Part shown: positions 8,310-49,367 of the stretch, in pieces
Layout of the letters: every line of letters starts with the position of its first letter
Position numbering within the stretch: position 1 is the stretch's first letter
Assembly: GCA_963790795.1 (NCBI GenBank)
Contig: CAWBPO010000002.1
Location: 1-51,553 of the forward strand
DNA length: 51,553 nt
Direction: 5' to 3'
DNA from: an uncultured bacterium
GTDB taxonomy: Bacteria > Patescibacteriota > Minisyncoccia > Minisyncoccales > RBG-13-42-11
The notes under the pieces: generated by a model
Databases searched by the model: none
What the model saw: the letters and a program-made list of their open reading frames with translations, nothing else
What the model was told of the DNA's origin: nothing
Position numbers and translations under genes: made by a program

Positions 8310-8407
8310 ATTTGAAAATTCGCGAATCTCGTGACTAATACGTAAGGTCGCGAAGATACAAGGTCGACGCGATTGAGATAAATTATCATTAAATTAAAAT
8401 TATAAAA

Positions 8408-10385
8408 ATGACTAGTTTAACAAAGAAAATTGTAGCAATCGTAACAACAGTTACTTGCGCAGCCTGGATGATCAGTCCTGGAATCGCTTCAGCTTTAACC
8501 GCTGAAGAGCTTCAGGCTCAGATCGCTACCTTGACCGCTCAATTAGCTACTCTTCAAACTGAATTAACATCCTTAACGGGAACAACCGCTGGGTACAGTT
8601 CCAACAGATTGCACTGGTATAACCTTTACTGTCAATTTGGCACTGGGTTCCACTGGTGCTGATGTTAAATGCCTTCAGGCATTATTGAACACCGATGCAG
8701 CAACTCAAGTTGCTGCAACCGGTGCAGGTTCTCCTGGAAATGAAACAACGTACTTTGGTACTTTAACCAAAGCTGCTGTTTCTAATTTCCAGGCAAACAA
8801 TGCTATTTCTCCAACAGCCGGTTTTGTTGGTCCTATAACTCGCGCCAAATTAAACGAAATATTGACAACAGGTACAACAACCCCAACAACTCCGACAGGA
8901 CTTCCAGCTGGTTGTACATCAACCGCTGGTTACAGCCCAACAACAGGCGTGTCTTGTGCCACTGTAACACCGACAACTCCAACAGGAGGCGCAGAGGGTA
9001 GCATTTCAGCATTAACAGCTGCCACACCGATTACCGGGCAGACTATTTATGCTGGACAGGCTGAAATAGCGATAAATGGCCTTAATATAAAAGCTGTTGG
9101 CTCTGACGTATTGGTCAATCGTATTGACATCAAATTTATCCAGAGACCATGGCTTTATGTTCCAAAGATTACAATCACTGATGGCACAAACATCTTAGCC
9201 ACCTTTGATGTAACTCAGGCCAGCACCATTGAAGTGACTGTTGGTTCAAATTACGTTGTTCGTATTGAAGGTTTGAACCTCAACATTCCAAAAGACACAA
9301 CAGTATCTCTTGTTATAAAGGCTGATGTTACATTGCCTGTGGGAATATCTGCTAATACAACCATCACTTACCAGGTTCTTGCTAACGCAATTCGTGGAAT
9401 TGATGGAGCTGGTTTGACACAATACGCTCCGCTTGGCAATTTAACCGCAAGAACCTTTATTATAGCGAGAAGTACTGTTGCCCAGCTTGATGTCGCTGCT
9501 GCCGCTGACAACCCGTTAGCCAAAGCAGTTGTCATCAGTGAAACAGAAACAACAGAGAATGTTGAGATGTTGAGAGCTAATGTCAAGGCAAAATACAACG
9601 ATGCTATTATAAGAACAGTCGTTGTTGATTTGGTAGACGCTAACAGCAGAATAGGAGCTTTGAAGCTTTATGACGGCTCCACTCTGTTGGCTGCTACAAG
9701 CACAGCAGGCTCAGCCAGTTCTACTTTCACTGACCTTAGCTTGAGAGTTAACAAAGATACTACCAAGACATTGATTGTAAAAGGTGACGTTTTGGCTACC
9801 AGCACAGAAGGCTATGCAGCTTCAGTTTCCTTACCGGCTACTGTTACTGCAATCGTTGCCGAAGATGCTGGCGACTACACAACAGTTACAACCATTACCG
9901 GTTCAAAGGCTTTAGGTTATGCAGCTCACTTCTACACTCTAGCTCCGAGCTTGGCTTTGGTCAGCACTTCCATCACAGGAATTGCAGCAACAGGAAGCGC
10001 TTCACCTCAGCAAGCAGAAGGCAAGATTAAGATCAATGTGACTGCTCAGGGCGGAGACATTTACGTGCCTAAGTACGCTGCCTTAGTAGCTTCTAGCGGT
10101 ATTTCAGCTAGCGCTACCGGAAACACAGCAGCATCTCCTACTTGCACTTTCACCAGCAACGCAACCGAGAAAACAAATTCTTGGTTGGTTTCATCCGGTG
10201 AAACCAAATGGTTTGAGGTGTCATGCATGATAACCAGCGCTGGAAACGCTGCTTTTGCCCGAGTATACTTAACAAACTTCAAGTGGGATATAAGCGACGC
10301 AGCAGCTACCACGCCTGATCACAACTGGACTTGGGGTCTTGAAACATTCAAGACAAGCGACATCTTCTTACAGGCTCAAGGATAG
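8408..10385 (+). CDS. S-layer-like major surface protein with signal peptide, coiled coil and peptidoglycan-binding-like domain; +1 frameshift at GGG 8591-8593
   Basis: Removing one G joins MTSLTKK... to [28 protein letters not shown]...[14 protein letters not shown]...[15 protein letters not shown]-rich beta body; strongly biased codon usage. Confidence 0.8.
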
Positions 10386-10457
10386 TTTCAGCTTTAACTT
10401 TCTTGTAAAGTTTTCGTTTCTTGCCGAGAATATTCCTTGTGTGTTCTGCGGGCAAGA

Positions 10458-10492
10458 CAAAAAGCTCCCAGCTTTAAAGCTGGGGCTTTTTG
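10458..10492 (+). terminator. Intrinsic terminator
   Basis: aaaaagctcccagcttt/aaagctggggcttttt plus T-rich tail. Confidence 0.8.
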
Positions 10493-10521
10493 TTTTCTTT
10501 GTATTTTGGTAAAATATTTTA

Positions 10522-12738
10522 ATGAAGTCAGTGACAAAAATACTGCTGTTTTTCGTAATAATCATTACTCCTTTTTTAAAAGTAGACTCTCTTTACTTTC
10601 CCTACGTTTCAGGGAAAATATATGTTTTCCGGCTTTTGGTAATACTCGCTTTTTTCTTCTGGATTTGGCTGATGCTGAAAGAAAGGGAATGTCCCTCGAC
10701 TTCTCTCGGGGCAAGCAGCCCAAATTTTAAAAACATTTTGGTAATTGCTTTGGTTTTGTTTTTTTTAGCCCAGGTTTTGGTTTCTTTTTTTAGTGTTGAC
10801 ACTGCATATTCTTTTTTTTCCAGTATTGAAAGGGGAGAAGGAGTTTTACAGTACGGCTTCTGGCTTTTATATTTTTTAATGCTCATTTCCGTTTTAAAAA
10901 GAAGCCAAGATTGGAAAATGCTTTTTTCGATTTTTGTGATTGTCGCTTTTTTGGTTTCTTGCTATTCCTGGCTGAATCTTAGCAGCCAGGGCCAGTTGCA
11001 GGGAATTTTCGGCAATCCCGCTTATTTTGCCTCTTTTTTGCTTTTTGCTATCGGTTTTGCTTTGTTAGCGGTTGAAAGAAAGTTTTTTGAAAGCCGTCTT
11101 ATCAATAATTTGTTTATTACGGTAGCTGGCTTTTTTGTTCTTACTTTAGTTTTTACTCAGATTCGGGGAGCTTATGCCGGACTGGCGGCCGGTGTCTTTC
11201 TTTTTTGCCTTTTATCTGTTTTGTTTTTAAGAAAAGAAAACAAAAAAGCGGCTGTTTTTTGCGGCATTTTGCTGTTAGTGGGTTTTGGCTCAATCGCTTT
11301 GCTTTTTTCCGCTAGAGAGAGCAATTTCGTTAAAAGCACTCCTCTTTTATCAAGGGTAACTGAGGTAACTAATATCTGGGAAACAGGTTCTACCAGAGAG
11401 CGTCTTTTAACCTGGGAAATCGCTTTGAAAGCTTTTAAGGAAAAGCCGATTTTCGGGTACGGTCCTGAGAACTTTGGAGTTGTTTCTAATAAATATTACG
11501 ATTACCGGATAGGCAGGGGAGAAGCCTGGTTTGACAGGGCGCACAACAATGTTTTTGAGATTCTGGCAACAGGCGGCATTATTCTTTTTTCTTTTTATCT
11601 TTTCTGGCTGGCTGCTGCAGCTTTTCTTATTTTTAAAATATATAAAGAGAAAAAACTTCTTTCTTTTCTTTTGGCTTCCCTGTTCTTGGCGTATTTTACG
11701 CAAGGGCTTTTTCTTTTTGACGTTTTTGCCTCGTATCTCGGCCTTTTTCCGTTTCTGGCGTTTTTGGTTTTTAAATGCAGTTCTTCAAAAGAAGATTTTT
11801 CAGAAAGAAGCAATTTAAAAAGAAATCCTCCTTTGTTTATTTTGATTCTTGCCGGTATTTTTTCTTTTTTCGTCGTTTTTACCTCTTGTTTTTTGCCTTA
11901 CAAAGCCAATGCTGCGCTTTTAAACTTTTGTAATTCTACGGAAAACGGCTTTTACAAGGAAGCTGAGCTATTTTTGGAAGAATCTTTCAAAGTACAGTCG
12001 CCATATACTTTTTGGGAAACAAGAAAAAGGGCTGGCTGGCAATTTTTAAAAATTCTTGATTACGAGGTGGATGAGAATACAACTTCCGGAGACCTTCAGA
12101 CAGTCAAAGACATTTATGATTTTATTGTTCCTGAACTTGAAGGGCTTGCTCAAAATCGGCCTTCTGAACAGCAGACATATTATCTTTTAGGCAGGATTTA
12201 CCGTTTGGGTTCTGAGAAATTAGATAGAAATGATTTGGACAAAGCAGTAGATATTCTTGAAAAAGGATTCGCATATTCTGATTTAAGAGTTGATTATTTC
12301 AGTGAATTGGCCCAGGTTTTGCTTTCTCAGGGAAAATTTGAACAAGGCGAAGCATTGGTCAAGGATTATGTTAACAGGACGCATTTTCAGAATTATTTCC
12401 CCTTTTTGACTTTAGGACATTTTTATTTTGTGGCAGGCAAGTACGATTTAGCATTGGAACAATATGAAAAAGCAAGGGAAGTGGGCTATGATTTTTGCGA
12501 GATTGAGGCGGAATACAGCCGCTATATGACCGTGGCTGAACAAATGCAGGAATACCAGAAAATAGTTGACATGGCTAAAAGGCATTTGGAGGAGAAAGGG
12601 CCAGATTCAGATACATATTTTAATATTGCTGTTGGCTATTTCAATCTTGAAGAAAAAGAAAAGGCAAAAGAATTCTTTTTGAAAGCTTTGGAACTTGATG
12701 CGCAGTACGAGTCATACCGGACAATTTTCATTTATTAA
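10522..12738 (+). CDS. O-antigen ligase/O-oligosaccharyltransferase (Wzy_C) family protein with C-terminal TPRs, paralog 1
   Basis: Many TM helices, GIFGNPAYFA, TQIRGA, RLLTW...PIFGYGPENF, FDRAHN; TPR tail. Confidence 0.88.
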   Translation: MKSVTKILLFFVIIITPFLKVDSLYFPYVSGKIYVFRLLVILAFFFWIWLMLKERECPSTSLGASSPNFKNILVIALVLFFLAQVLVSFFSVDTAYSFFSSIERGEGVLQYGFWLLYFLMLISVLKRSQDWKMLFSIFVIVAFLVSCYSWLNLSSQGQLQGIFGNPAYFASFLLFAIGFALLAVERKFFESRLINNLFITVAGFFVLTLVFTQIRGAYAGLAAGVFLFCLLSVLFLRKENKKAAVFCGILLLVGFGSIALLFSARESNFVKSTPLLSRVTEVTNIWETGSTRERLLTWEIALKAFKEKPIFGYGPENFGVVSNKYYDYRIGRGEAWFDRAHNNVFEILATGGIILFSFYLFWLAAAAFLIFKIYKEKKLLSFLLASLFLAYFTQGLFLFDVFASYLGLFPFLAFLVFKCSSSKEDFSERSNLKRNPPLFILILAGIFSFFVVFTSCFLPYKANAALLNFCNSTENGFYKEAELFLEESFKVQSPYTFWETRKRAGWQFLKILDYEVDENTTSGDLQTVKDIYDFIVPELEGLAQNRPSEQQTYYLLGRIYRLGSEKLDRNDLDKAVDILEKGFAYSDLRVDYFSELAQVLLSQGKFEQGEALVKDYVNRTHFQNYFPFLTLGHFYFVAGKYDLALEQYEKAREVGYDFCEIEAEYSRYMTVAEQMQEYQKIVDMAKRHLEEKGPDSDTYFNIAVGYFNLEEKEKAKEFFLKALELDAQYESYRTIFIY
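10693..10716 (+). repeat. CCCTCGAC-N4-CTCGGG palindromic element, in frame (PSTSLGAS)
   Basis: ccctcgacttctctcggggcaagc, a GC-rich islet in a loop between TM helices. Confidence 0.65.
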
Positions 12739-12800
12739 CGATTTTTTCTGCTAACCTGGTTTTCAAAATTCTATAATTTGATAATATATATATTGAGCTA

Positions 12801-14498
12801 ATGAAAAGCATTTTTAAGGCAAATTTTTTATTTCTCTTTCTTTCTTTTTTAATTTTGGGAAGCGCTTTTGCTGTTGGAGTAAACGCCCAGTCAGAAACAA
12901 AGTCTTTCTACGTTGAAAGCTCATATGATTTGTACGCCAGAAAAAGTGTTGAAACGGTTTTGGTGCGCACTTCCGACAATCTCTATTTCTACGTTGAAAA
13001 GCCTTGGTGGGATAATCGTTCTTCGGCAGAGCAGAACGACATCAGAGTTTCCTTATATAATCTGGGAGAAGAATTCAAAAATAAGATTTATCCTATTTTA
13101 ACTTCCAATTTCGGCTCTGAATGGAGTCCAGGAATTGACAATGACAGCAGAATCACGGTTTTGATTCATGAAATGGAAAGAGGCGTGGGAGGATATTTCC
13201 GCAACCACGATGAATACTACAAGCCCCAGATATACAGCTCAAACGAGGCAGAAATGCTGTATCTTAATTCCCAGTTTATTACCGCTTCCTTTGCCAAGAG
13301 CTTTTTGGCGCACGAATTCGTCCATTTGATAACTTTCAACCAGAAAGACAGGTTGAGGAACGTTATAGAGGACGTCTGGCTCAATGAACTAAGGGCAGAG
13401 TATGCTCCCACTCTTTTGGGATATGATGATATTTACGAAGGGTCCAATCTTCAAAAAAGAGTAAATACTTTCTTAAACAATCCCTCTATTTCTCTGATTG
13501 AGCGGCAGAATGAGGTTGAAAGCTATGGAGTTTTGAACGTTTTCGTCCAGTATTTGATTGACCATTATGGATTTAAAGTCCTACAGGATTCTCTTTTTTC
13601 TTCAAAAGTGGGCATTGAATCGATAAATTACGCTCTGCAAAGAAACGGCTTTCAGAAGGATTTTTCCCAGATTTTCAGCGACTGGTCGGTAACTGTTTTG
13701 GTCAATGACTGCTCTTTGGGAAGTAGCTATTGTTATAAAAACAGCAATTTGAAGAATTTCAGGATTACTCCAGAAACCAACTTTATTCCGACAACTGCCG
13801 AAAGCACCTTGATCACTTACAACCAGATTAAGGATTGGTCAGCCAAGTGGCAAAGAATATTCGGTGGCAAAGGAAGCTTAACTTTGAATTTCAGCGGAGG
13901 CGTAGGAATCAATTTTAAAATTCCTTACGTTGTTTGTGATTTTGACAACAAATGCTTTGTTAAAATCTTAACTTTGGATAAAGACGGGAATGGGCAGATA
14001 TTGATTTCCGATTTCAGCTCAAAGTACTTTTCCCTGACTTTGGTGCCCTCTGTCCAGCAAAGGCAGTCAGAGTTTACGGGTAACGGATCTTATTATCCTT
14101 TTTCTTTGGAAATAAAAACAAGGGAAGTGTCAGGCGATGGAGATGCTTTGATTCAGAGCCTTCTTGACAAGATAGCTTATTTGCAAGCTGAGATTGCCAG
14201 GGTGCAATCAGCCATTAACGCTTTTTTGGCTTCGCAAGGCAAGGAACAAATGAATTTTTCTTCTTGCAAGAATTTTGGAAACGATCTTTACTACGGAATG
14301 AAAAACAGCCAGGAAGTTTCCTGCTTGCAGCAATTTTTGAAATCCAAGGGTTCCGATATTTATCCTGAAGGATTGGTGACTGGAAACTTTCTTTCTTTGA
14401 CTTTTACCGCTGTTCAAAGATACCAGGCAAATAAAGGAATAATCCAGACAGGCTATTTTGGTCCTTTAACCAGGGCAGCCGCTAACAGCGAATTATGA
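12801..14498 (+). CDS. Secreted zinc metallopeptidase (M30-like) with C-terminal coiled coil and PG-binding-like domain
   Basis: GGYF, AHEFVHLI, WLNE; CLQQFL...GYFGPLTRAAAN. Confidence 0.8.
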   Translation: MKSIFKANFLFLFLSFLILGSAFAVGVNAQSETKSFYVESSYDLYARKSVETVLVRTSDNLYFYVEKPWWDNRSSAEQNDIRVSLYNLGEEFKNKIYPILTSNFGSEWSPGIDNDSRITVLIHEMERGVGGYFRNHDEYYKPQIYSSNEAEMLYLNSQFITASFAKSFLAHEFVHLITFNQKDRLRNVIEDVWLNELRAEYAPTLLGYDDIYEGSNLQKRVNTFLNNPSISLIERQNEVESYGVLNVFVQYLIDHYGFKVLQDSLFSSKVGIESINYALQRNGFQKDFSQIFSDWSVTVLVNDCSLGSSYCYKNSNLKNFRITPETNFIPTTAESTLITYNQIKDWSAKWQRIFGGKGSLTLNFSGGVGINFKIPYVVCDFDNKCFVKILTLDKDGNGQILISDFSSKYFSLTLVPSVQQRQSEFTGNGSYYPFSLEIKTREVSGDGDALIQSLLDKIAYLQAEIARVQSAINAFLASQGKEQMNFSSCKNFGNDLYYGMKNSQEVSCLQQFLKSKGSDIYPEGLVTGNFLSLTFTAVQRYQANKGIIQTGYFGPLTRAAANSEL

Positions 14499-14502
14499 GT
14501 GC

Positions 14503-14590: not shown

Positions 14591-14716
14591 ATTAATCAAA
14601 AAATTGTCGAATAAATACATACATATAATAAATTAATTAACTTTTAAAGCCGCAGAATTATTTTTGCTTGCGGTCGATTTCAAGTAAAAATCAATCTTCG
14701 CGGCGAAAAAAAACAT

Positions 14717-17700
14717 ATGAATACAATAAAAAAATTAAGCAAATTTAACAAAATTTTTATTTTTCTATCTGTCGTTACGGTTTTAAGTGTCGCAGCTTGG
14801 TATGTTTTGGCAGACGCAGTTACTGAGTTTATCACCCAGCCGATAGAATCAACCTCAGCCAATGTGACGGTTAAGGCTGGCAGCGACTGGCAGAATATGA
14901 TTTATTTTTCTGCCCAAGCGAGCAGTACAGATGATTATTTGGAGCAAGTTCAGTTCACGATTAATTGGGGTGGCGGCACTTTTAACGGCGATGAAATTAA
15001 TTCAATCGCTCTTTACAGAAGTGATGATGACGCAATGGATCCTTCGGAGGATACATTGGTTGCTTCAAAAGGCGCAGGTTCAATAAACTATGGTTCCTTA
15101 ACCACTTTTTCTTGGTCTGCAACGGGAACAAACAATATTTTCCCGGCCATTTCTACAGAATACTGGTTTTATTTAGTTTTCAAAACTGACAGCAGTTCTT
15201 GGAGCGATAACGGAGTTGGTGCTGACGACCAATTTACAGTAAGTATGGCAGTAGGCGATGTAATAATAAGAGAAGCAACTACTCCGGTAGATATTACTTC
15301 TACAGGAACTCCCACAACCGATAATTTTATTGCTGATAACACTGCGCCAACAGTTGATGATTTTGCAGTAGAAACAAACCCTATCTGTGACAGTACTACT
15401 ACCCAAGAAGTGGTTGTTACTTTCAGCGAAGAAATGGATAGTACAGCTACGCCGACTATCGCTTTTGCCACTACTACTGGCTTTTGGACAAGCAATGATG
15501 ACGGCGCCTGGAACGTTGGTACGACCACCTGGACAGAGACCTTTACTTTGGATGATCAAAACGAAGAAGTAACAGGCGTCTCTGTACTTATTTCCGACGG
15601 TGTAGACGTAGCTGGCAACTCGCAAGGGGGAACCCATGAAGTAGCACCCGCCTTTGACGTAGACACCGAAAATCCGACAGCTGTGGAGGTTATTGCACAA
15701 ATTCCTACGATATTTGAAAGTCAATTAACTCAAACCGTGCAAGTCGTATACGACGAATCAATGGATACCGGCACTACTCCGGTAATCACTCTGACTGGAA
15801 CTAATTGGGAAGCCCAGACCAATGTAGGTTGGTCAACAAGCACTGCTCCCGGAGATACCTTTACTGCCACCTTTACTCATGACGGCGATGAAGAAACGAT
15901 AGCTGCGGAAACCGCCACAGTAGCCAATGCCAGTGGCGCGACAGACTTGGCAGGCAATGATGAAATAGGAGACACTTCAGACCCGTTTGTAGTTGATACT
16001 GGAAAGCCGACAGTAACCGGCGTTACGCCGACTACTTTAAACCGGAATGAGGTTGGGCCAGCAGTTACTTTCACAATCACTTTTGATGAAGATATGGATC
16101 AGACTAGCGTCATTGTGGCAACTGTTGAAGGATTAACTGCTTCCTCCTCGATTCCTGTTGCGGGAGATTGGACGTCAACTACAACTTGGGGAGGAACATT
16201 CGCTTTATATGATGATGATGAGGAAGTTGATGACGCTTTCTACGCCATTGCCGGAGCCCAAGATGTAGCAGGTAATGTTATAGCACCTTTAGTTGTCAGA
16301 GGAGCAAACAATCCTCTTGACGTTGATACGCTTGAACCAACCGTTACTAATGTCGCAGTGGGTACAGCCATTATTTATGATACTGATTTAACCCAAGAAG
16401 TTACTCTTACTTTCTTAGAAGCTATGGATGTAGGGATTGACCCAACCATAGTATTTAGTAATGGCACCTGGACAAGCGCAGGAGCCGGAGTTTGGGCAAG
16501 TAGTACTGAATATTCTGAAAGTTTTGACCTAACGGATAACGGAGAGACGTTTACAGATGTTGATATTATAGTAAGCGAAGCCGAAGATTTGGCCGGGAAT
16601 GCAATGTTTGAAGATGATTCAACTGGCGCAGACGCCTTTAATATTGACACCCAGAATCCGACAGCCACAGTTAATGTAGGCGTTCCTACGATATTTGAAA
16701 GTTCATTAACTCAGACCGTAATCGTGGTCTATGATGAAGAGATGGACCCAACTGCTACCCCGACTATTACTGTTGACGGCGGAGTTGCTTGGGGGCCTCA
16801 AGTTGAAGTCGGTTGGTCAGCAACCAACACCACTTATACAGCTACTTTCTTGCACCCTGGAGATGAAGAAGAGATAGCCGTAGCCACAGCCACTGTTTCT
16901 TCAACTAGCGGAGCCAAAGACTTAGCCGGCAACACTGATATTGGCAATACTGCCAATTTCGAAATAGATACTCAGAAACCCACAGGTACCGTTGCTGTTG
17001 ATACTGACCCAGTATATGATACTGATTTAATTCAGATAGTTACTATTACCTATGATGAAGAGATGGATGGAGCGTCTACTCCAGTTATTACCTTTGATGG
17101 AAACACTGGTGCCATTGCCACTGCAGGTGATGGTGCTTGGGACGCTGGTACAACCACCTGGACAGAAACATTCAATGTTACTGATGCTGAAGAAGAAACA
17201 CCAGCTGTTACTGCCAGCAGCACAGGAGCTGCTATAGATGCAGCAGGCAATGCTGAAGGAGAGTGTGTTTCAACTACTTTTGAAATAGATACGATAGCTC
17301 CGACAATCACCGATGTAAACTCAGATAAAGCTGACGACGATTACACAATAGGAGAAGTTATTGACATTGATGTTACTTTTTCTGAGAATGTCACCTCCGC
17401 GGAAATTACAGTCACTTTAGATACAGGCGGAAGCTGTATTACTACAGCTGCAGCAACTGACACTGTTACCTGCGATTATACGGTGGGTGAGGGAGAAAAT
17501 TCAGCTGATTTGGATGTTGCGAACATTGCCGGCGTCATAGCTGATGCTGCAGGTAACTTGGTGATTGATTTTGTCCCGGCAACTAATTTAATCGCTAACA
17601 AAGACATTGTTATTGACACTACTGCTCCGGCAGTTGATGCAGGAGAAAGCCCGGGCACAGTATACGCAGAATTTAACCAAGACGCCACAGCTTCAGACGA

Positions 17701-19021
17701 CGGTTCGGGTATTGCCACTTACGCTTGGACTAAAGTAAGCGGTCCTTATGGCGTAACTTTTACTACGGCTGATATAGAAGATCCTGATGTATCTGCAGCT
17801 GGCCCTGGTGCTTATGAGATAATGTTAACTGTGACTGATAATACCGGAAATAGTGCCACTGATACAGTTGCCTTTACTTGGAGCTGGCTTAATGTTCCCA
17901 TTTGGGCTTATAGTCCACTTGGTTCTGGTGTTGCCATAGCAGATGGAACAGCCACTATTACTTTTGGAGATTCGGAAGATTCAACCACAACTATTACTTT
18001 ATTGGACGCTAACAAAGTTAATTTGGTTGATAATGCCAGTGGTATTTCTATGAAAACTGGAGTAGAAGTTCGTGATGGCGATGGTAATTCCAAATACCTT
18101 GATATTTCTTACTCTGGTTTGGAAGCTGATAAAACCTATAGAATTAATATTCTATCTGGGGCTGTTAAAAATGATGTTGGTAACATCAATTCCGATGACA
18201 TATCCTATTTCAGTACGGGAAATGGCGACATAACTCCTCCGGAAGTTGAGGATGTTTATCCTGCTGATGGAGCTGAAGACGTGAATGTTTTTTATGCTCC
18301 AATCCAAATATTCTTTAATGAGGGAATGGATGTCACTACCATTATTAATGACAACATTAAACTTTATAACGATGCTGACGAAGAAATTGTCTTGGACCCT
18401 GACTATGGTGTAACTGCTTTGTCTGGAATAGCTTTTGGCGGAGTATATAAAACCTATGTTGAAATTGTTCCCGCCACTATATTGGATGCCAGCACTACTT
18501 ATTATGTAACCATTTCTACCGATGTTACTGATTTGGCAGGAAATCCTTTTGACGGCTGGATAAAAGGTAATTATTCATTCACTACCGCAGAAACACCGAC
18601 AGGAGAATTGAATATTGATAATGTGAGAATTAATCCTTTAAGAACCTATGCCCTTGCAACCGATGATTATGACGATGGCTGGGAATGGTGGATTTCTTTG
18701 ACTATTCCGACTGACGAGCCGCTTGTTCAACTGAAATTCAGCGACTTTTTCGGCCCTTCAGACCAGATTGCTGCTGCAGACAACATAAGATACTTTTCCG
18801 AACGATCAACAGACGTTAACAGTACAACCACAGCGATAACTGTTGAAGGAGCTAATGATTATGGAGAGGATTCTATGACTTTTGACGTAGACAGTGACAC
18901 TCAGCTGGGCATGGACGGGTGGCAGATAGTAGTTACAGTTCAGGTTAAAGTGCCCACGACAGCAGATGGCGGCGCATATTCAGCTCAGTTCTCTGTTCAA
19001 TCGTCTGAGGAGGAATTGTAA
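14717..19021 (+). CDS. Large acidic surface protein/adhesin with tandem bacterial Ig-like repeats
   Basis: Signal peptide; ~110-aa repeats with TF.E.MD and DxAGN; C-terminal Big_5-like units (DVYPADGAEDV...FNEGMD). Confidence 0.85.
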   Translation: MNTIKKLSKFNKIFIFLSVVTVLSVAAWYVLADAVTEFITQPIESTSANVTVKAGSDWQNMIYFSAQASSTDDYLEQVQFTINWGGGTFNGDEINSIALYRSDDDAMDPSEDTLVASKGAGSINYGSLTTFSWSATGTNNIFPAISTEYWFYLVFKTDSSSWSDNGVGADDQFTVSMAVGDVIIREATTPVDITSTGTPTTDNFIADNTAPTVDDFAVETNPICDSTTTQEVVVTFSEEMDSTATPTIAFATTTGFWTSNDDGAWNVGTTTWTETFTLDDQNEEVTGVSVLISDGVDVAGNSQGGTHEVAPAFDVDTENPTAVEVIAQIPTIFESQLTQTVQVVYDESMDTGTTPVITLTGTNWEAQTNVGWSTSTAPGDTFTATFTHDGDEETIAAETATVANASGATDLAGNDEIGDTSDPFVVDTGKPTVTGVTPTTLNRNEVGPAVTFTITFDEDMDQTSVIVATVEGLTASSSIPVAGDWTSTTTWGGTFALYDDDEEVDDAFYAIAGAQDVAGNVIAPLVVRGANNPLDVDTLEPTVTNVAVGTAIIYDTDLTQEVTLTFLEAMDVGIDPTIVFSNGTWTSAGAGVWASSTEYSESFDLTDNGETFTDVDIIVSEAEDLAGNAMFEDDSTGADAFNIDTQNPTATVNVGVPTIFESSLTQTVIVVYDEEMDPTATPTITVDGGVAWGPQVEVGWSATNTTYTATFLHPGDEEEIAVATATVSSTSGAKDLAGNTDIGNTANFEIDTQKPTGTVAVDTDPVYDTDLIQIVTITYDEEMDGASTPVITFDGNTGAIATAGDGAWDAGTTTWTETFNVTDAEEETPAVTASSTGAAIDAAGNAEGECVSTTFEIDTIAPTITDVNSDKADDDYTIGEVIDIDVTFSENVTSAEITVTLDTGGSCITTAAATDTVTCDYTVGEGENSADLDVANIAGVIADAAGNLVIDFVPATNLIANKDIVIDTTAPAVDAGESPGTVYAEFNQDATASDDGSGIATYAWTKVSGPYGVTFTTADIEDPDVSAAGPGAYEIMLTVTDNTGNSATDTVAFTWSWLNVPIWAYSPLGSGVAIADGTATITFGDSEDSTTTITLLDANKVNLVDNASGISMKTGVEVRDGDGNSKYLDISYSGLEADKTYRINILSGAVKNDVGNINSDDISYFSTGNGDITPPEVEDVYPADGAEDVNVFYAPIQIFFNEGMDVTTIINDNIKLYNDADEEIVLDPDYGVTALSGIAFGGVYKTYVEIVPATILDASTTYYVTISTDVTDLAGNPFDGWIKGNYSFTTAETPTGELNIDNVRINPLRTYALATDDYDDGWEWWISLTIPTDEPLVQLKFSDFFGPSDQIAAADNIRYFSERSTDVNSTTTAITVEGANDYGEDSMTFDVDSDTQLGMDGWQIVVTVQVKVPTTADGGAYSAQFSVQSSEEEL

Positions 19022-20536: not shown

Positions 20537-20591
20537 AGTCGAAGAAGATTACTTCTTTTCCACCTTCGTCCGCCAGAGGCGGACTCGGCAT
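20537..20591 (+). repeat. Two-hairpin element abutting a start codon, copy A
   Basis: agtcgaagaag-atta-cttctt...cttc-gtccgcc-aga-ggcggac-tc..atATG; homologous to 32917-32973. Confidence 0.7.
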
Positions 20592-20894
20592 ATGAAAGAA
20601 CAGTTAGCGTTGAGGCCGACCTTATTTTGGGATGTAAACCATAAAAAGATTGATAAGCAAAAAGACGCTGAGTTTGTCATCGGACGGGTTTTGGATTTCG
20701 GCAATTTAAGAGAGTGGAAAGTTATAAAAGATTTTTATGGTTTAGCCAGGATAAAAAAGACGGTCCTGAGGCATATTTTTTCCGACCCGCGCAGCGCTAA
20801 TTTCTGGGCAATGATATTCGGCATTAATTTAAAAAATTTACAATGCAAGAAGAAGTTCTCACTAAAAACACCAAGAGCGTTCTCAATGCGTTAA
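20592..20894 (+). CDS. DUF6922-like small protein (putative antitoxin)
   Basis: LFWDV...FVIGRVLDFG..EW...FYG pattern; overlaps an AbiEii gene. Confidence 0.75.
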   Translation: MKEQLALRPTLFWDVNHKKIDKQKDAEFVIGRVLDFGNLREWKVIKDFYGLARIKKTVLRHIFSDPRSANFWAMIFGINLKNLQCKKKFSLKTPRAFSMR

Positions 20895-21475
20895 ACGCCT
20901 CCGGTATTGCAAAGAATTTTTATTTGGCGGGCGGAACGGCGCTGGCTCTTTATTTTGGGCATCGTTTTTCTGTTGACCTTGATTGGTTTGCTGAGAAATT
21001 TGATTACAATCTCTCTTTCCGCAGGCAGTTGGAAAAACTTGGAAAACTGGGCGTAGACAGCGAGTCTGAAAAAACTTTTAACGGCACATTGAACAGAGTA
21101 AAAATCAGCTTTTTTGAATATCCATATCCCTTGGTAGCATCAAAGCAACGATACAAAGACAATATTTATCTGGCTGGTATTCCTGATATAGCGGCAATGA
21201 AGATGGAAGCTATCGGCAGGAGAGGTTCTCACAAAGATTTTATTGATATATATTTTCTTTTGCAACATTATTCTTTAGAAGAACTTCTTGGATTTGTGCA
21301 CAAAAAATTTGCCAATATTGAATATAACGAAACTCATCTTTTAAAAGCGCTGACTTATTTTGAAGATGCAAAAGGCTCTATCATGCCGCAACTTATAAAA
21401 CAGGTAAGCTGGCAGAAGATTACAGGCACAATTAGACGCAATGTAGAAGCTTATTTAAAAAACTACGGTAAATAG
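20843..21475 (+). CDS. AbiEii/AbiGii-family nucleotidyltransferase
   Basis: FYLAGGTALALYFGHRFSVDLDWF, DIAAMK..AI.RRG..KDFIDIY. Confidence 0.9.
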   Translation: MQEEVLTKNTKSVLNALNASGIAKNFYLAGGTALALYFGHRFSVDLDWFAEKFDYNLSFRRQLEKLGKLGVDSESEKTFNGTLNRVKISFFEYPYPLVASKQRYKDNIYLAGIPDIAAMKMEAIGRRGSHKDFIDIYFLLQHYSLEELLGFVHKKFANIEYNETHLLKALTYFEDAKGSIMPQLIKQVSWQKITGTIRRNVEAYLKNYGK

Positions 21476-28448: not shown

Positions 28449-29621
28449 ATGAAATATAAAAAAGTTAACGAAGGATTTTCTAGTGTTCCTTTAATCGGCC
28501 AAGGCACTATGGGGATGGGTGGTTTTTTATCTAAAGATACTACTTACGATTTTGAGAGTGTTAAATCCTTAAGATTGGGCATAGAGATAGGCATGACTTT
28601 TGTTGATACGGCAGAAAGTTACGGGGCTGGACACTCTGAAGAATTGGTTGGTAAGGCAGTAAAAGGAATGAGGAAAAAAGTTTTCATCGCGACAAAATTT
28701 TCTCCTGAAAACAATAATTATAAAAAAGTATTACAGGCAGCTGAAAGGAGCCTCGAAAGATTAAACACAGATTATATCGATCTTTATCAGGTTCATTGGC
28801 CTAATCCTCAAATCCCTATTGAAGAGACAATGGCAGCTATGGAAGATCTCGTTAAACAAGGTAAAGTGAAGTACATTGGAATTAGCAATTTTTCATTAGA
28901 ACAAATGAAGGAGGCCCAAAGATCACTTCGGCAAAATAAGCTTTTTTCAACAGAGATGGAGTATAATCTTTTTGACCGTTTTATTGAAAAAAATATACTC
29001 CCTTATTGTGAAAAAGAAAAAATAATAACTGTAGCCTATAGTCCTTTAGATCAGGGAAGGATTGTCTCTAACGAAGAGAATAAGTTAAAAGTATTACAAT
29101 CCATCGCCAGAAAATACAAAAAGACAGTTTCTCAAATAGTTTTGAATTGGTTGGTTTTACACCCCACCGTTATTGCCATTCCCAAAGCAACCGAAGAAAA
29201 ATATATTAAAGAAAATGCCCTAGCTGCCGATTTTGAGATAAGTAAAGAAGATTTTAATGAAATTGCCAGAATTTATACTAACGAAACAACATATGTACCA
29301 ACAGAAGAAATTAACGTGAGTACGACTGGACAAGGTAATAGGAGAGTTTATCAGACTATAACAGAGGCAATAGAAAATAAACTAAGTTTCGTTCCAAGTC
29401 CTACAAATTTAGCTCAATATATTAAAAATCATTCCGAGGAAGAAATAAAGCCAGTTAGACTGGTTCCTGCCCAAGACAGTAAATTTAAATATGATTTAAT
29501 AGAAGGAAGAGTGCGTTATTGGGCTTGGGTTATTGCTCAGATAAGGGTGAAAAACCCATTCCGGCATATATTAGAGCAAAACTTTAATTTTTTAATAATA
29601 ATTATTAATAAGTCGAATTAA
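28449..29621 (+). CDS. Aldo/keto reductase with C-terminal ParB/Srx-like extension (probable late frameshift at ~29540)
   Basis: DTAESYG.G.SEE, IATK, DYIDLYQVHWP, IGISNF, AYSPL, IPKA; tail YDLIEGRVRYWA. Confidence 0.85.
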   Translation: MKYKKVNEGFSSVPLIGQGTMGMGGFLSKDTTYDFESVKSLRLGIEIGMTFVDTAESYGAGHSEELVGKAVKGMRKKVFIATKFSPENNNYKKVLQAAERSLERLNTDYIDLYQVHWPNPQIPIEETMAAMEDLVKQGKVKYIGISNFSLEQMKEAQRSLRQNKLFSTEMEYNLFDRFIEKNILPYCEKEKIITVAYSPLDQGRIVSNEENKLKVLQSIARKYKKTVSQIVLNWLVLHPTVIAIPKATEEKYIKENALAADFEISKEDFNEIARIYTNETTYVPTEEINVSTTGQGNRRVYQTITEAIENKLSFVPSPTNLAQYIKNHSEEEIKPVRLVPAQDSKFKYDLIEGRVRYWAWVIAQIRVKNPFRHILEQNFNFLIIIINKSN

Positions 29622-29645: not shown

Positions 29646-30398
29646 ATGGAAAAAAATATACCAAAAATTTACAGCAGTTCTGAAGAAAATAAAGTTCGGG
29701 AACAATTCGTCGAACATTTCAGAAATTGTCCTATTCCAGACGATCAAATTCTTTCCAATCTTGGGTTATTTTTGAATTCTAAAACCTTAGCAAGGATCCT
29801 TTTTATGGACCACCTTTACAGACAGATTGTTGATGTTCAGGGAATTGTCATTGACTTTGGAACATGGTGGGGCCAGAATTCGTCTTTATTTGCTGCCCTT
29901 AGAGGAATATATGAGCCGTTCAATCGTCACAGAAAGATAGTTGGTTTTGATAGTTTTACTGGTTTTCCTTCTATCTCGGAAAAAGATGGCGGTTCCGATC
30001 TTATGGTTAAAGGCAATCTTGCCTTAAGCGAAAATTATGTTGAATATCTAAGAAAAATAATGGAACTTCAGGAAAAAGATAATCCTTTGTCCCATATTAA
30101 GAAATTCGAGATTATACCCGGAGACGCTACGGTAACGATAAATAAGTTTCTTGAGGGTAATCCGGAAACAATTATTGCTCTAGCTTATTTTGATTTTGAC
30201 ATTTACGAGCCCACTAAAAAATGTTTGGAAGCAATTAAGTCTAGATTGGTAAAGGGAAGCGTTTTGGGATTTGACGAGCTTAACGATCATGATTCTCCCG
30301 GTGAAACTTTAGCGCTTAATGAAGTTTTCGGATTAAACAACATAAAATTAAAGAGATATCCATACGCTTCAAGGACTTCTTATTTTGTCGTTGAATAA
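29646..30398 (+). CDS. TylF/MycF/NovP-type sugar O-methyltransferase
   Basis: GIVIDFGTWWG, GFDSFTGFP, AYFDFDIYEPT, FDEL. Confidence 0.85.
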   Translation: MEKNIPKIYSSSEENKVREQFVEHFRNCPIPDDQILSNLGLFLNSKTLARILFMDHLYRQIVDVQGIVIDFGTWWGQNSSLFAALRGIYEPFNRHRKIVGFDSFTGFPSISEKDGGSDLMVKGNLALSENYVEYLRKIMELQEKDNPLSHIKKFEIIPGDATVTINKFLEGNPETIIALAYFDFDIYEPTKKCLEAIKSRLVKGSVLGFDELNDHDSPGETLALNEVFGLNNIKLKRYPYASRTSYFVVE

Positions 30399-32916: not shown

Positions 32917-32973
32917 AGTCGAAGAAATGCATTTCTTCTTTATCTTCGTTTCCGCTTCGCGGAAACTCAATAT
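32917..32973 (+). repeat. Two-hairpin element abutting a start codon, copy B
   Basis: agtc-gaagaaatg/catttcttc...cttc-gtttccgc-ttc-gcggaaac-tc..atATG. Confidence 0.7.
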
Positions 32974-38690: not shown

Positions 38691-38694
38691 AATA

Positions 38695-45860: not shown

Positions 45861-48024
45861 CTTGGAAAAGATATATTTTAAAATAATTGAATGGGGGACT
45901 TATCTTGTTCTTTTTACCCCTTTTATTTTTATAAATGATTATTTTTTTCCTTTTGTCGTTCCTAAAACAATTTTTTTCAGAATTATTGTTGATGTTATCT
46001 TTATTGCTTTTATTCTTTTGGCGACTGTCAACGCTAAGTATAGGCCGAGAATTACTCCTTTGACTGTGGCTGTTTTTATTTTTTTGGCAGTACTTGTTTT
46101 AACTTCCATTACCGGTGTAAATTTTACAAGGAGTTTTTGGAGCGTTTTTGAAAGAATGGAAGGTTTATTAACCTTTTTTCATCTTTTTGCTTTTTACATC
46201 GTTTTAACCAGCGTTTTTAAAGAGAAAAAATATTGGGAAAGAATTTTGTCCGTTTCAATCTTAGTCGGAATTTTCATTGCTTTTAACGCCTTGACTTCAA
46301 CAAACCCGGCCACCCGAGGAGGAGGAACGCTTGGCAATTCTTCTTTTTTTTCAGCTTACATTCTTTTCAATCTGTTTTTTGCCATAATCTTTCTTGTTAC
46401 TAAGAAAGGAGTTTGGCGGTTTTTTTACGCTGCCGCCTTCATTGTTTTTATCTGTTCTTTGTTTTTTAATCCTGGCGGCTTTACCAAAGGGGCTGTTACC
46501 GCTTTCATTATGGGATTGCTTGTTTTGTTTTTTGGTTTTCTGCTGTTTGTTTTATTTTCGTCCGACCAGAAAAAGCTTAAAATCATTGTTCTTTCTTTGA
46601 TGATTTTATTCGTCTTGGCAGCGTTTGGTTTTTCCCAGCTTGATTTTGTTAAGGAAAAAATGGATAAATTGTGGCAGTCAAACAGCGTTCAAGCAAGATT
46701 GGTAGTTTGGAATATTGGCTGGCATGGCTGGCAGGAAAGATTTTGGTTTGGCTGGGGCTTGGAGAATTTCAATGTTCCTTTTGCCAAGCATTATAATCCT
46801 GAACTTCCTCTTTCCGGCGACATTTGGTACGATAGGGTCCATAATATTGTTCTGGATACGGGAATTAACTCTGGAATTATCGGGTTATTAAGCTATTTGT
46901 CTGTTTTCGGCGTTGCTATTTTCGGTTTATTAAGGCTTTTGCCGAGAATAAGCGAGAAAAAGAACATTATTGTTCCTTTGGCTATGGTTGCCTTGTTTTT
47001 GGTTTATTTTTTTCAGAATCTTTTTGTCTTTGATATGATTTCCACCCATATGATGTTTTTCTTAAGTTTGGCTTTTGCCGGCTTTCTGATTTCTTCAGAT
47101 AAAGAAGAAGTTAAAGAGAAAATTTTTCCTTTGCCTTCTTTTACTGCCGGCTTTTTAATAATTCTAACTGTCTTTGTTCTTTTTTTCGGAAACATCCAGG
47201 TTGCCAAAGCTTCAAAGTTTTTACTCAAAGGAATAATTTCTCCTTTAGATCAGTCCATTTCCTATTTCCAAAAAGCCTTTAAAGCTTCGCCAATGGTGCA
47301 GTTTGAAGGTTCTGAGCAGTTTTTTTCAAGAATGAGCACATTGTCTTCCCAGGCCGACCAGAATAAAGAATTGTTAAACCAGGGATTCATTTTGGCTGAG
47401 GAAGAGCTTGAAAAAAGCATTACTCAGAATCCTTTGGATTTTCGCCTTTATTTGTCTTTAGGAAGGTATTACAATAATTTTTATCAGTTTTCCGCCGATA
47501 AGGAAAAACTGACATTGGCTGAAAAAACTTTGAATAAGGCAATTGAATTAAGCCCGGGAAACCAGCAAGCCTATTTTGTTCTGGCCCAGACTTTCCTTTT
47601 TGAGGGCGATTACGAAAAGGCCATTGAAGCTTGTAAGAAAACGGTTGAACTTGAACCGAACCTGGCCCAGTCGCATTGGTATTTAATGAAAGTTTACAAG
47701 GCAGCAGGGGAATACGAGCTGGCTTTTTATGAATTAAAGGAAGTGGAGGGCTTGGGATTCAGCTGGCAGGGCGATGCTTCCACCTTAAAAGAAGGTATAG
47801 AGGTTCTTAAGGCAGTTGGCGTGGATATCAAGATTATAATTGCTCTTTATGAAAAAGGGGCAGAAATTAGTCCTAAAGATTACTATTTTTGGGCAAATTT
47901 GGCTGATAGTTATGCGGCAGTAGGGGAAAAAGAAAAAGCGAAAAATGCGGTAGAAAAGCTTTTGGAGTTGAAACCAGAACTTTCTCCCCAGGTTGAACAG
48001 TTTCTAAAAGAGTTGGGCTATTAA
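45844..48024 (+). CDS. O-antigen ligase/O-OTase family protein with TPRs, paralog 2
   Basis: SFWS.FERMEG, GTLGN, ARLVVW, FGWGLENF, YDRVHN; TPR tail. Confidence 0.88.
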   Translation: MADKNSLEKIYFKIIEWGTYLVLFTPFIFINDYFFPFVVPKTIFFRIIVDVIFIAFILLATVNAKYRPRITPLTVAVFIFLAVLVLTSITGVNFTRSFWSVFERMEGLLTFFHLFAFYIVLTSVFKEKKYWERILSVSILVGIFIAFNALTSTNPATRGGGTLGNSSFFSAYILFNLFFAIIFLVTKKGVWRFFYAAAFIVFICSLFFNPGGFTKGAVTAFIMGLLVLFFGFLLFVLFSSDQKKLKIIVLSLMILFVLAAFGFSQLDFVKEKMDKLWQSNSVQARLVVWNIGWHGWQERFWFGWGLENFNVPFAKHYNPELPLSGDIWYDRVHNIVLDTGINSGIIGLLSYLSVFGVAIFGLLRLLPRISEKKNIIVPLAMVALFLVYFFQNLFVFDMISTHMMFFLSLAFAGFLISSDKEEVKEKIFPLPSFTAGFLIILTVFVLFFGNIQVAKASKFLLKGIISPLDQSISYFQKAFKASPMVQFEGSEQFFSRMSTLSSQADQNKELLNQGFILAEEELEKSITQNPLDFRLYLSLGRYYNNFYQFSADKEKLTLAEKTLNKAIELSPGNQQAYFVLAQTFLFEGDYEKAIEACKKTVELEPNLAQSHWYLMKVYKAAGEYELAFYELKEVEGLGFSWQGDASTLKEGIEVLKAVGVDIKIIIALYEKGAEISPKDYYFWANLADSYAAVGEKEKAKNAVEKLLELKPELSPQVEQFLKELGY

Positions 48025-48034
48025 GCTTTAAGCA

Positions 48035-48063
48035 TTGACAATTTTTACGCTATTTGCTATCAT
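48035..48063 (+). promoter_or_regulatory. Sigma70 promoter TTGACA-N17-TATCAT (with TG extension)
   Basis: Near-consensus; no ORF follows before a terminator. Confidence 0.75.
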
Positions 48064-48069
48064 TGAATC

Positions 48070-48136
48070 AGTGAGTGCGACCCGAAAGGGCTCCATTCAA
48101 AAGTCGGCGAAAAACCTCCCTTAAGCGAGGTTTTTT
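48070..48136 (+). ncRNA. Candidate ~67-nt small RNA (RNA1)
   Basis: Promoter upstream; CCC-GAAA-GGG tetraloop hairpin in a GAG/CTC stem; terminator aaaacctc/gaggtttttt. Confidence 0.55.
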
Positions 48137-48143
48137 GCTTTTT

Positions 48144-48236
48144 AAAATTCAAAAACCCAAATGTTTTTTGGGTTCTTGAAAGGGCCAACGAGTTTACTCC
48201 AAAACAAAGTCTTTAGTGAGTGCTGTCCGTTGGCCC
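48144..48236 (-). ncRNA. Candidate ~90-nt small RNA (RNA2), convergent with RNA1
   Basis: Minus-strand TTGTAT-N17-TAAAAT with TG extension; GGGCCAACG/CGTTGGCCC 9-bp closing stem; downstream hairpin 48148-48180 with a G-U pair only on the minus strand. Confidence 0.5.
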
Positions 48237-48273
48237 GATGTTATTTTAGCAATTTTTCTGTTAGAATACAAAA

Positions 48274-49224
48274 ATGGATATCAATAATTTTCTGCCCTCG
48301 GTCAAAAGAAACATTCCTCTGAAAAATCACACTGCCTTTAGAATCGGCGGGCCAGCCAGATATTTTTTTGAAGCAAAAAGCAAAGATGATTTGCTTTTGG
48401 CGTTGAAGATGGCAAAAAGATTCAACTTGCCTTTTTTTAATTCCCGAGTAAAACGAGGGAGTCAAAGTTCCCGACGAGCAAAGCGAGGAGGGGTTTTTAT
48501 TTTGGGCGGAGGGAGCAACCTGTTGGTTTCTGATAAAGGTTACAAAGGATTGGTTATTAAAATGATGAATGATGATTACCGGATATTAAAGAACGAGATT
48601 ATTGCAGGAGCAGGAATACTTTTGGGAAGATTGGTTATTGTTGCCACTGAACATGGTCTGTCTGGATTAGAATGGTCTTTTGGAATTCCCGGGACGGTCG
48701 GAGGAGCTATTTTTGGAAATGCCGGAGCTTTCGGAAAATCGATGAAAAATGTCATTAGAAAGGTTGAAGTTTTCAATGCAAAAAATTTGAAATTTGAAAC
48801 ATATAATTTAAAAGACTGCAGATTTGATTATCGAGAAAGCGTTTTTAAGAAAAAAAAGAATTTAATTATAGTATCTGTGTTTCTAAAATTGAAAAAAGGA
48901 AAGAAATCTGAAATCAAAAAGAGAATGGAAAAGAATATTGATTACAAAAAAAGTAATCAGCCCTTAAATTATCCTTCAGCTGGGTCTGTGTTTAAAAATC
49001 CGGATAAAAAATCTGCCGCAAAGCTGATTGAAGATTGCGGTTTGAAAGGAAAAAAAATAGGAAAAGCAAAAATTTCCTGGAAGCACGCCAATTTTATTGT
49101 TAATTTGGGCGGAGCTCGGGCAGAAAACGTTAAAAATTTGATAAATTTTACAAAAAAGGCGGTAAAAAAACGTTTCGGCGTGTCGCTAAAAGAGGAAATT
49201 CAATATTTGGGTTTTGAAAATTAG
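48274..49224 (+). CDS. murB: UDP-N-acetylenolpyruvoylglucosamine reductase carrying a 20-aa insertion
   Basis: HTAFRIGGPA, ILGGGSNLL, GIPGTVGGA..GNAGA, YRES, PSAGSVFKNP, KHANFIVN. Confidence 0.95.
   Translation: MDINNFLPSVKRNIPLKNHTAFRIGGPARYFFEAKSKDDLLLALKMAKRFNLPFFNSRVKRGSQSSRRAKRGGVFILGGGSNLLVSDKGYKGLVIKMMNDDYRILKNEIIAGAGILLGRLVIVATEHGLSGLEWSFGIPGTVGGAIFGNAGAFGKSMKNVIRKVEVFNAKNLKFETYNLKDCRFDYRESVFKKKKNLIIVSVFLKLKKGKKSEIKKRMEKNIDYKKSNQPLNYPSAGSVFKNPDKKSAAKLIEDCGLKGKKIGKAKISWKHANFIVNLGGARAENVKNLINFTKKAVKKRFGVSLKEEIQYLGFEN
48434..48499. mobile_element. 60-bp in-frame palindromic insertion flanked by TTTTTA direct repeats
   Basis: TTTTTA at 48434-39 and 48494-99; contains tcccgagtaaaacgaggga and cccgacgagcaaagcgaggaggg. 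Confidence 0.7.
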
Positions 49225-49312
49225 ATTTTTTCCATTTTCCATTTTTATTTTCTATTTTTCGGTTTTCCACACTTGACAAAGTTTTTCAAAATGAAAAAAT
49301 ATACTAATGGAT

Positions 49313-49336
49313 GCGAATAGTTAGTCGACTATTCGC
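49313..49336 (+). promoter_or_regulatory. 5' leader hairpin GCGAATAGT-tagtcg-ACTATTCGC
   Basis: Perfect 9-bp stem downstream of TTTTCCACA (49263) and TTGACA (49273). Confidence 0.6.
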
Positions 49337-49367
49337 TGAGACTCTTTTAAAAATCGTTACCATTCTC

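Follow-up and report, generated by a model that had tools for sequence, protein, structure and literature searches.

We analysed a stretch of 51,553 nucleotides (nt), hereafter the window, which is the whole of contig CAWBPO010000002.1 (GenBank assembly GCA_963790795.1) from an uncultured bacterium of the order Minisyncoccales, and in which a preliminary description had noticed a recurrent GTCGA word before start codons. The word belongs to a leader motif, AAGGTCGA, that recurs across the genome on the sense strand at a preferred distance from ATG, and its core is complementary to the tip loop of helix 26 (h26) of 16S rRNA. Because the same word stands directly behind the 16S gene and there changes in step with the loop, we consider it probable that AAGGTCGA, placed about 26–50 nt before some start codons in ultra-small bacteria that belong to the Candidate Phyla Radiation (CPR), acts as a second ribosome tether of the Shine-Dalgarno (SD) type through the h26 loop. 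Enrichment, strand, spacing, complementarity, loss of the anti-SD and the covarying trailer word can all be read from the sequences themselves, and of the roles suggested earlier (initiation, processing, protein binding) translation initiation appears most likely. The signal had been taken for lineage-specific, yet it is spread class-wide, and in many phyla precursor rRNA has this word as an old element.

A strand-specific word before start codons

The genome (G000) comprises 708 kb at 38% GC in three contigs (C1 to C3, C2 being the window). Among the named loci listed, the best matches of its 16S gene were mostly labelled Patescibacteria, at only 74–77%. Together with the small genome and the lack of matches to components of the signal recognition particle, they put it among the CPR, and the missing anti-SD suggests the Parcubacteria/Paceibacteria (PMC9297842). 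Genes were called with a purpose-written hexamer-model caller, which returned 803 genes (90% coding), 741 of them retained. Since long open reading frames (ORFs) already reach 84% coverage under genetic code table 11 and a tRNA-Trp(CCA) is present, table 11 was adopted; codes 4/25 and 15 were rejected. Start-codon errors of this caller would blur the spacing of a motif, not create it.

Taken alone, the window gives weak evidence for the motif: GTCGA occurs in it 17 times on both strands, against 36 expected, and its 27 leaders hold 4 sense and 3 antisense copies (1.2 expected, p 0.027). Genome-wide the evidence is strong. In 412 non-coding leaders AGGTCG led the 6-mers, with 25 copies where 2.5 were expected and 5 copies in antisense; in the 5-mer ranking of the same leaders GGTCG came first and GTCGA 17th. 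The recurrence noticed earlier is real across the genome; GTCGA, however, is not the full word, which is (A)AAGGTCG(A/G), that is, AAAGGTCG(A/G), followed by an A/T-rich spacer of 20–40 nt. The preliminary description had staked its proposal on enrichment and on a bias of strand and of position relative to start codons, and all of these were found: at −60 to −20, GGTCG was present in 27 of 410 leaders, with 5.1 expected and 4 antisense.

The spacing peaks at 28–40 nt before ATG, with a second group at 44–48 nt. Because the peak lies at 28–40 nt, the 44–45 nt first read as a fixed spacing is not the main one. The same leader analysis was made on 100–240 kb of each of 16 relatives, and G000 was pooled with the ten that lack the anti-SD (11 genomes, 1238 leaders; for G037, G031 and G027 this state was assumed from their order). 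At 25–49 nt the pool held 53 sense and 7 antisense copies of GGTCG, and 29 and 4 when G000 was left out. Counted in 5-nt bins starting 5 nt before ATG, the copies numbered 0, 0, 0, 1, 5, 12, 18, 7, 11 and 1, so that none fell at 5–19 nt and one at 20–24 nt; since the background there is 1–2 per bin, the empty zone below 25 nt is suggestive only. Of 59 copies, 48 had A or G after GGTCG, bases that can both pair with U, and two had C. The wobble-compatible GGTTG was also found more often in sense than in antisense at 25–49 nt (28 vs 11).

Display in a hairpin is not the rule it had seemed. Most genomic copies lie in unstructured A/T-rich leaders, and of the three hairpin sites first described one sits in a loop (14673), one is partly paired (8363) and one lies mostly in a stem (49324). 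Opening the motif was predicted to cost 2.9 kcal/mol, against 4.6 for other GC-rich 5-mers and the same as for in-place permutations. The A/T fraction of the spacer between motif and ATG is 0.85, compared with 0.75 in other leaders (p 4e-5). N-terminal hydrophobic segments are over-represented among carriers, both in G000 (14/26 vs 84/382 of the others, p 7e-4) and in the ten relatives (15/32 vs 186/796, p 0.005). GTCG-type words also precede genes that, from their N-termini, we take to encode RRM, cold-shock and KH proteins.

An element acting in DNA, whether it lies within a promoter or the initially transcribed region or is an oriented transcription-factor site, would also be compatible with the strand bias. 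To weigh it, 58 copies at 26–60 nt from ATG (most at 28–48 nt) were considered. An extended −10 box was found for 17 of them, at distances of 7–95 nt, with four copies 7–11 nt behind the box, near +1, as a DNA element would have it. The other 41 had no box, so that the fixed −10 distance of a sigma-70 promoter element was not seen among the 58. Eleven copies lie in co-directional gaps of at most 70 nt, short gaps internal to operons, and 44 follow a gap of more than 70 nt or a divergent gene. Since the copies keep a narrow distance to ATG, stand at scattered distances from a −10 box or have none, and are in some cases operon-internal, an RNA-level signal is favoured; moreover, the same word in the 16S trailer, described below, acts as an RNA pairing strand. 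We regard a DNA-level element as very unlikely. The data support a strand-specific, ATG-positioned leader signal at the RNA level.

The helix-26 loop, the 16S trailer and the anti-SD

The 16S tail of G000 has no CCTCC and, in its first bases, no complement of GGTCG. The motif thus lacks complementarity to this tail, and in the 1238 leaders it does not sit 5–15 nt before the start, as an SD would. CCTCC was absent from all 14 tails read in the order. Loss of the anti-SD and an exposed UCGAC in 16S rRNA were what the preliminary description had proposed to look for, and both were found. TCGACC occurs twice in the 16S of G000, one copy in a stem (read by eye) and the other in the h26 tip loop, which in the predicted fold exposes 8 nt, UGUCGACC, complementary to GGUCGA. 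The predicted duplex of GGUCGA with the loop has −8.5 kcal/mol, against −8.6 for AGGAGG with CCUCCU. Across the class sample (142 of 341 genomes matched, a few by chance outside 16S) the TCGACC loop is constant while the h26 stem varies in pairs. The variant h26 of G414, a probable chimeric contig end, was set aside because G497, of the same family, has the canonical loop. The available text of PMC9297842 notes the conserved h26 of Parcubacteria and calls its role unknown. The word shares two features with tethers to h26, complementarity to the tip loop and a sense-strand position at a defined distance from the start. G000 also encodes a four-domain S1 and bS21. The RNA of the signal recognition particle (SRP) was tried as a pairing partner and rejected, since neither SRP RNA nor an SRP54-family protein had a match in G000, the one genome searched.

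A conserved GTCGA-type strand, single-stranded and flanked by two variable hairpins, stands behind the 16S 3' end (as an AGGTCG-type strand in C1:387550–387690 of G000 and in loci L001–L014, L022 and L171–L304). The loop gave a match in 99 of 261 genomes of a phylum sample. Nine genomes from six lineages have a changed loop, and in seven of these the 121-nt trailer contains the exact complement of the genome's own loop hexamer; cross-matches among the trailers amounted to 1 in 54, and the per-genome shuffle chance was 0.01–0.12. The changed pairs are:

G227: loop TCAATC, trailer GATTGA
G295: loop TCGATC, trailer GATCGA
G136 and G223: loop TCGGTC, trailer GACCGA (five of six bases in G113)
G081: loop TAGATC, trailer GATCTA
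G068: loop TTGACC, trailer GGTCAA
G112: loop TCGACT, trailer AGTCGA (five of six bases in G191)

Since the trailer changes match the loop changes, the h26 loop pairs with RNA, and by this covariation it is a true RNA-pairing site; the trailer element points to an interaction during 30S assembly. Trailers behind canonical loops carry GTYGR or GGTCG in 52 of 56 cases (shuffle mean 23, maximum 34), the full GGTCGA in 12, and at least five of six Watson-Crick pairs in 49. The trailer of G000 itself, GTCGGC, makes one G-U pair and uses the loop's extra G. No clear element was found in the trailer of G048, and in two of two genomes with a short h26 it was absent by eye. When the best 80 named loci were listed, 61 had both loop and trailer, and behind TCGACC loops the word was present in 10/10 cyanobacteria, 12/18 CPR and 31/33 other or unlabelled loci; it also occurs in Elusimicrobia, Actinobacteria, Acidobacteria, Chloroflexi, Verrucomicrobia and others. 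In cyanobacteria, part of the word forms the 3' strand of the first helix of the spacer, presumably the helix known as D1-D1', and may switch partners there. A seventh pair, between loop G/A and trailer C/T, was read by eye in the class: C was present in 10 of 14 G-loop trailers and in at most one of 25 A-loop trailers. This covariation was not strict in other lineages and was not seen in mRNAs.

Many CPR trailers fold the anti-SD into a hairpin. Further along the trailer in the order of G000 (C1:387630–387665 and L001–L014), an AGGTG-type strand has a matching CACCT-type stretch that the following hairpin carries in its loop, and compensatory changes in L007 and L014 make a pseudoknot probable; the hairpin preceding the strand is often capped by GAGAATTCT. 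In G227 (C1:568650–568702) an altered tail, CACCCCTT, and SD use of 2.6% accompany the changed h26 loop matched by the trailer. The rRNA operon of G000 has a 16S insertion near C1:386540–386830, a 23S insertion holding an ORF, and, at C1:388042–388719 within the 16S-23S spacer, a 226-codon membrane-protein ORF with a AAAGGTCGA leader.

The spread of the leader word among the 16 relatives is given below as GGTCG observed/expected/antisense.

Own order: G013 6/1.6/2; G037 3/1.2/0; G031 1/0.4/0; G027 3/0.7/0; G040 2/0.2/0
Other orders without CCTCC: G583 6/0.6/0; G313 4/1.3/1; G397 3/1.4/3; G367 1/0.6/0; G586 3/1.9/2
Anti-SD kept: G558 2/2.0/1; G462 2/2.6/0; G063 1/1.4/1; G136 2/1.3/3; G081 6/6.3/7
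G227: 0/0.3/1

In the five genomes with an anti-SD, GGTCG at 25–49 nt was found 9 times in sense and 10 times in antisense. The pattern AAGGTCGA-N14-38-WWWWATG matched 140 times in a set of 27 genomes, of which 22 belong to the own order; the backward control gave 42 matches, and nearly all spacers were A/T-rich. A looser class-wide pattern matched 330 of 341 genomes and was discarded as too noisy for ranking lineages. Outside the class, where 80 genomes were covered, raw counts stayed near background; leader-like rows picked by eye numbered about 16 in 57 genomes with a TCGACC loop and about one in 23 with a short or variant loop, and several of these rows also carry an SD. A strict replacement of the anti-SD by the motif was rejected, as the motif is also present where the anti-SD is kept, with clear motif leaders in G442, which retains CCTCC; some genomes scored as lacking CCTCC retain CTCC. 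The motif is class-wide, richest in the order of G000, and no strict substitute for the SD. In G000, GGAGG peaks 10–14 nt before ATG in 21 genes, even though the single 16S recovered is without an anti-SD. Many of these genes (e.g., C3:12130–35693) look accessory, and SD-like leaders make up 12% in G037; such genes may have been acquired recently, or GGAGG may have some other reader.

Sites and genes in the window

The six GTCGA coordinates and ATG distances first given were all correct. Two of the sites are clear members of the class (8363, 14673), one is a weaker variant (29612), one is doubtful (49324), and the remaining two are repeat insertions (20538, 32918). As to the extra GTCG copies reported, that at 14606 is in fact a full GTCGA, and that at 8347 lies within an AAGGTCG copy. 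The features, all on the + strand, are:

8344–8350: second copy, AAGGTCG, on the 5' strand of hairpin 8347–8373, in a 28-nt stretch identical in G013
8360–8367: AAGGTCGA leader motif; GGTCG begins 46 nt before ATG 8408, inside hairpin 8347–8373
8408–10385: frameshifted gene, in two parts (8408–8662, 8637–10385), of a secreted protein that has a peptidoglycan-binding domain
14606–14610: TGTCGA copy, 111 nt before ATG 14717; a similar C1 leader has TGTTGA about 35 nt before ATG
14672–14677: GGTCGA in the 10-nt loop of hairpin 14660–14691, 45 nt before ATG 14717
14717–19021: largest ORF of the window, a surface protein of 1434 amino acids that contains Ig-like (Big_5) and PKD domains
20538–20590: inserted dispersed hairpin repeat starting GTCGAAGAAG; the C1 site is empty and G013 has related copies
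29611–29616: AGTCGA variant at an operon-internal junction, its GTCGA 34 nt before ATG 29646
32918–32971: another insertion of the repeat type seen at 20538; the C1 site is empty
49313–49336: conserved hairpin with AGTCGAC mostly in the stem, behind a TTGACA/TATACT promoter-like pair; a doubtful member
49368–49403: lysine-rich ORF of 11 codons, kept in G013 with one lysine fewer

The window is largely a second copy of C1:268–315 kb, 87–96% identical, so that its sites and those of C1 are not independent, yet can be used as allele pairs. The duplicate region spans 6404–50018 (C1:268341–314800), and the genes at 14717 and 19105 have no C1 counterpart; C2 probably stems from a variant strain or from a relative binned along with it. 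The 8408 gene has an unsplit copy of 656 amino acids with an identical leader at C1:270378–272345, and its frameshift in C2 may be an assembly error or a real inactivation; the 8637 ORF had no match in a sequence search of the PDB. The leader of the 8363 site is the same in G013, with a matching pattern row in G030. Within 8328–8373, G013 shares 28 leader nt without change, whereas flanks and protein diverge; in the predicted fold the motif is held partly by a weak 3-bp stem within the hairpin. The two hairpins and two GGTCG copies of this region suggest a regulatory switch. The 14673 site is not a repeat and was unique among the sequences compared. The gene at 29646 encodes a TylF-like methyltransferase, and its near-duplicate C1 locus has GGTCGA. 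The region 49313–49403, with its promoter-like pair, its hairpin and an 11-codon ORF that has a terminator-like hairpin, is conserved in G013; another very short, lysine-rich ORF of this kind precedes the rRNA operon (C1:385529). A scan of the window against Rfam at the gathering score gave no match. At 20592–21475, a DUF6922 gene and an AbiEii-family gene form a probable type IV toxin-antitoxin pair.

The sites at 20538 and 32918 raise the further explanation that the words are remnants of a dispersed repeat inserting before start codons. For these two it holds: the GAAGAAG..TTCTTC..CTTCG hairpin repeat lies directly before start codons in the window, and because GTCGA there is the 5' edge of a repeat absent from the matching C1 sites, neither counts as leader motif. 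The repeat begins with AGTCGAAGAAG or GGCGAAG, was matched by its pattern 23 times across 240 kb of G013, and occurs on both strands, mostly far from starts, whereas AAGGTCGA leaders have unrelated flanks that share nothing except A/T richness. A shared palindromic body and filled and empty alleles, as in repetitive extragenic palindromes, were found at 20538 and 32918 only and not in the AAGGTCGA class. As an account of that class, repeat remnants are extremely improbable.

Candidate mechanism, alternatives and known systems

The course of events we propose begins in the immature subunit, where the trailer would pair with h26 and block the loop until processing; where a lineage has kept the anti-SD, this too would be folded away, by a trailer hairpin nearby. 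Processing would free the h26 loop, and mRNAs may reuse the freed site. Leaders with AAGGUCGA would then form a 6-bp duplex at the mRNA exit, as strong as an SD duplex, and the A/U-rich spacer would thread the exit channel to the P site, probably helped by protein S1; the effect of h26 pairing on translation would be positive. Pairing by mRNA, as distinct from the trailer, and the direction of its effect are inferred, since covariation on the mRNA side is missing.

Several observations weigh against this reading. First, mRNA covariation with h26 was not seen, and lineages with variant loops have no clear matching leader word. By eye, the base after AAGGTCGA was C in 12 of 140 G-loop rows and in 8 of 122 A-loop rows. 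No clear class of GACCGA leaders appeared in family f75 or its sister f51, and the family of G227 had no GGTCGA among 18 rows and no clear GATTGA peak. In the family of G295, GGTCGA was found 14 times and the predicted GATCGA 7 times; GGTCGA can still pair with that loop by G-U wobble, and the loop was read in one of 12 family members. Variant-loop lineages use the motif too rarely for a clear leader word. Second, the motif is not linked to loss of the anti-SD: G586 lacks the anti-SD and shows no enrichment (3 vs 1.9), and the spacer pattern above matched 87 times in the 42 genomes of the class that lack CCTCC, where the control gave 49, and 35 times in the 16 that have it, where the control gave 31. 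Outside the class, raw pattern counts showed no difference between TCGACC-loop genomes (60 in 57) and those with short or variant loops (25 in 23). Third, only about 6.6% of scored leaders carry the motif, the three A's preceding GG are left unexplained by loop pairing, and the low folding at the motif is due to its A/T-rich context, not to the word itself. Finally, motif genes lack a codon bias like that of ribosomal-protein genes (p 0.27), and gene starts rest on our own caller.

Some of these points would suit a protein (an RNA-binding protein, an assembly factor or a nuclease) that reads single-stranded AAGGUCGA in leaders and sets translation or stability, the h26 match mattering for the rRNA trailer only. 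The conserved A's and the short fixed word are what a protein site would look like, mRNA covariation with h26 was not seen, and the putative RRM, cold-shock and KH proteins among the carriers could mean autoregulation. However, the leader word is identical to the trailer word that covaries with h26, its lower spacing edge at about 26–28 nt from ATG suits a ribosome-bound partner, and the base after GGTCG obeys the A/G pairing rules. We think such a reader unlikely. Pairing with h26 might also occur without more initiation, as a shield of the 5' end, a standby or brake, or a guide for RNA processing. The best-supported h26 pairing is indeed in a precursor RNA that gets processed, high-expression codon bias is missing, and some copies stand 6–9 nt behind a −10 box, where the 5' end is likely; yet the A/T-rich spacer resembles that of strong initiation regions, and large surface-protein genes are among the carriers. 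This, too, we judge to be quite unlikely.

Tethering to h26 has parallels elsewhere, which we draw from the available portions of the papers cited. The termination upstream ribosome binding site (TURBS) of caliciviruses pairs with the h26 tip of 18S rRNA, a site close to the mRNA exit, and is restored by compensatory changes in 18S (PMC5972666). Like motif 1 (UGGGA) of calicivirus and influenza B TURBS, the present word is a short G-rich mRNA word complementary to the h26 tip, standing upstream of the start by a defined distance and sometimes in a stem-loop. The TURBS, however, is viral and eukaryotic and holds a post-termination 40S subunit from inside an upstream ORF (PMC5972666), whereas the present word stands in bacterial non-coding leaders, mostly unstructured, with many carriers away from stop-start overlaps. 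The upstream ORF, stop-restart overlap and motifs 2/2* of a strict TURBS were not found, the copies being non-coding and 44 of 58 following a gap of more than 70 nt or a divergent gene. The Gtx/FGF2 leader element and domain IIId of the hepatitis C virus internal ribosome entry site likewise pair with 18S helix 26 from the 5' leader and recruit the small subunit (PMC6316650); these act on eukaryotic ribosomes and in single mRNAs, while here a genome-wide bacterial word is concerned, with pairing predicted from its letters. With SD and anti-SD the word shares a 5–6 bp duplex of similar predicted strength between mRNA and 16S upstream of the start, and both signals share one leader in some other classes; the SD, however, has the 3' tail as partner, in place of an internal loop at a loose 26–50 nt. 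The folding of the anti-SD into a trailer hairpin in many CPR parallels the blocking of h26 by the trailer word. By this comparison the motif is neither an SD nor a strict TURBS, and would work like an h26 tether.

Bacteroidetes also combine A/U-rich leaders with little SD use and a likely reliance on S1, and natural covariation has been used there to argue for pairing; in contrast to the order of G000, which lost the anti-SD, they keep it, hidden by bS21, bS18 and bS6 (PMC7797042). The available text of that study names no upstream GGUCG word. In pre-16S leader-trailer helices the trailer pairs during 30S biogenesis (PMC11404451), whereas here its partner would be a loop within the mature 16S; a term search of the main text of PMC11404451 gave no h26, helix 26, pseudoknot or Patescibacteria. 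Motif, h26 and Patescibacteria are likewise unmentioned by term search in the available text of PMC10783764 and PMC13000453, and "h26" in PMC7038931 and PMC11602121 was discarded as a strain name. No report of the leader motif or of trailer-h26 pairing was found in the literature searched, which excluded most subscription papers and supplements.

We propose tentatively, with slightly less than even confidence, a wider picture: bacteria with a UCGACC loop would have a second mRNA site on the 30S subunit, locked during assembly in many phyla by an old AGGUCG element of the trailer, and CPR of the Parcubacteria type would have turned it into a second SD system 26–50 nt upstream, used preferentially for exported proteins in cells without anti-SD and SRP. 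The h26 tether offers a testable answer to the question, left open in the available text of PMC9297842, of what the conserved h26 does in Parcubacteria that lack an anti-SD. The trailer-h26 interaction can be tested in culturable cyanobacteria and actinobacteria. For Patescibacteria, start-codon calling and expression design could both benefit from the motif. If true, tethering of mRNA to h26, known from eukaryotic viruses, would extend to bacteria.

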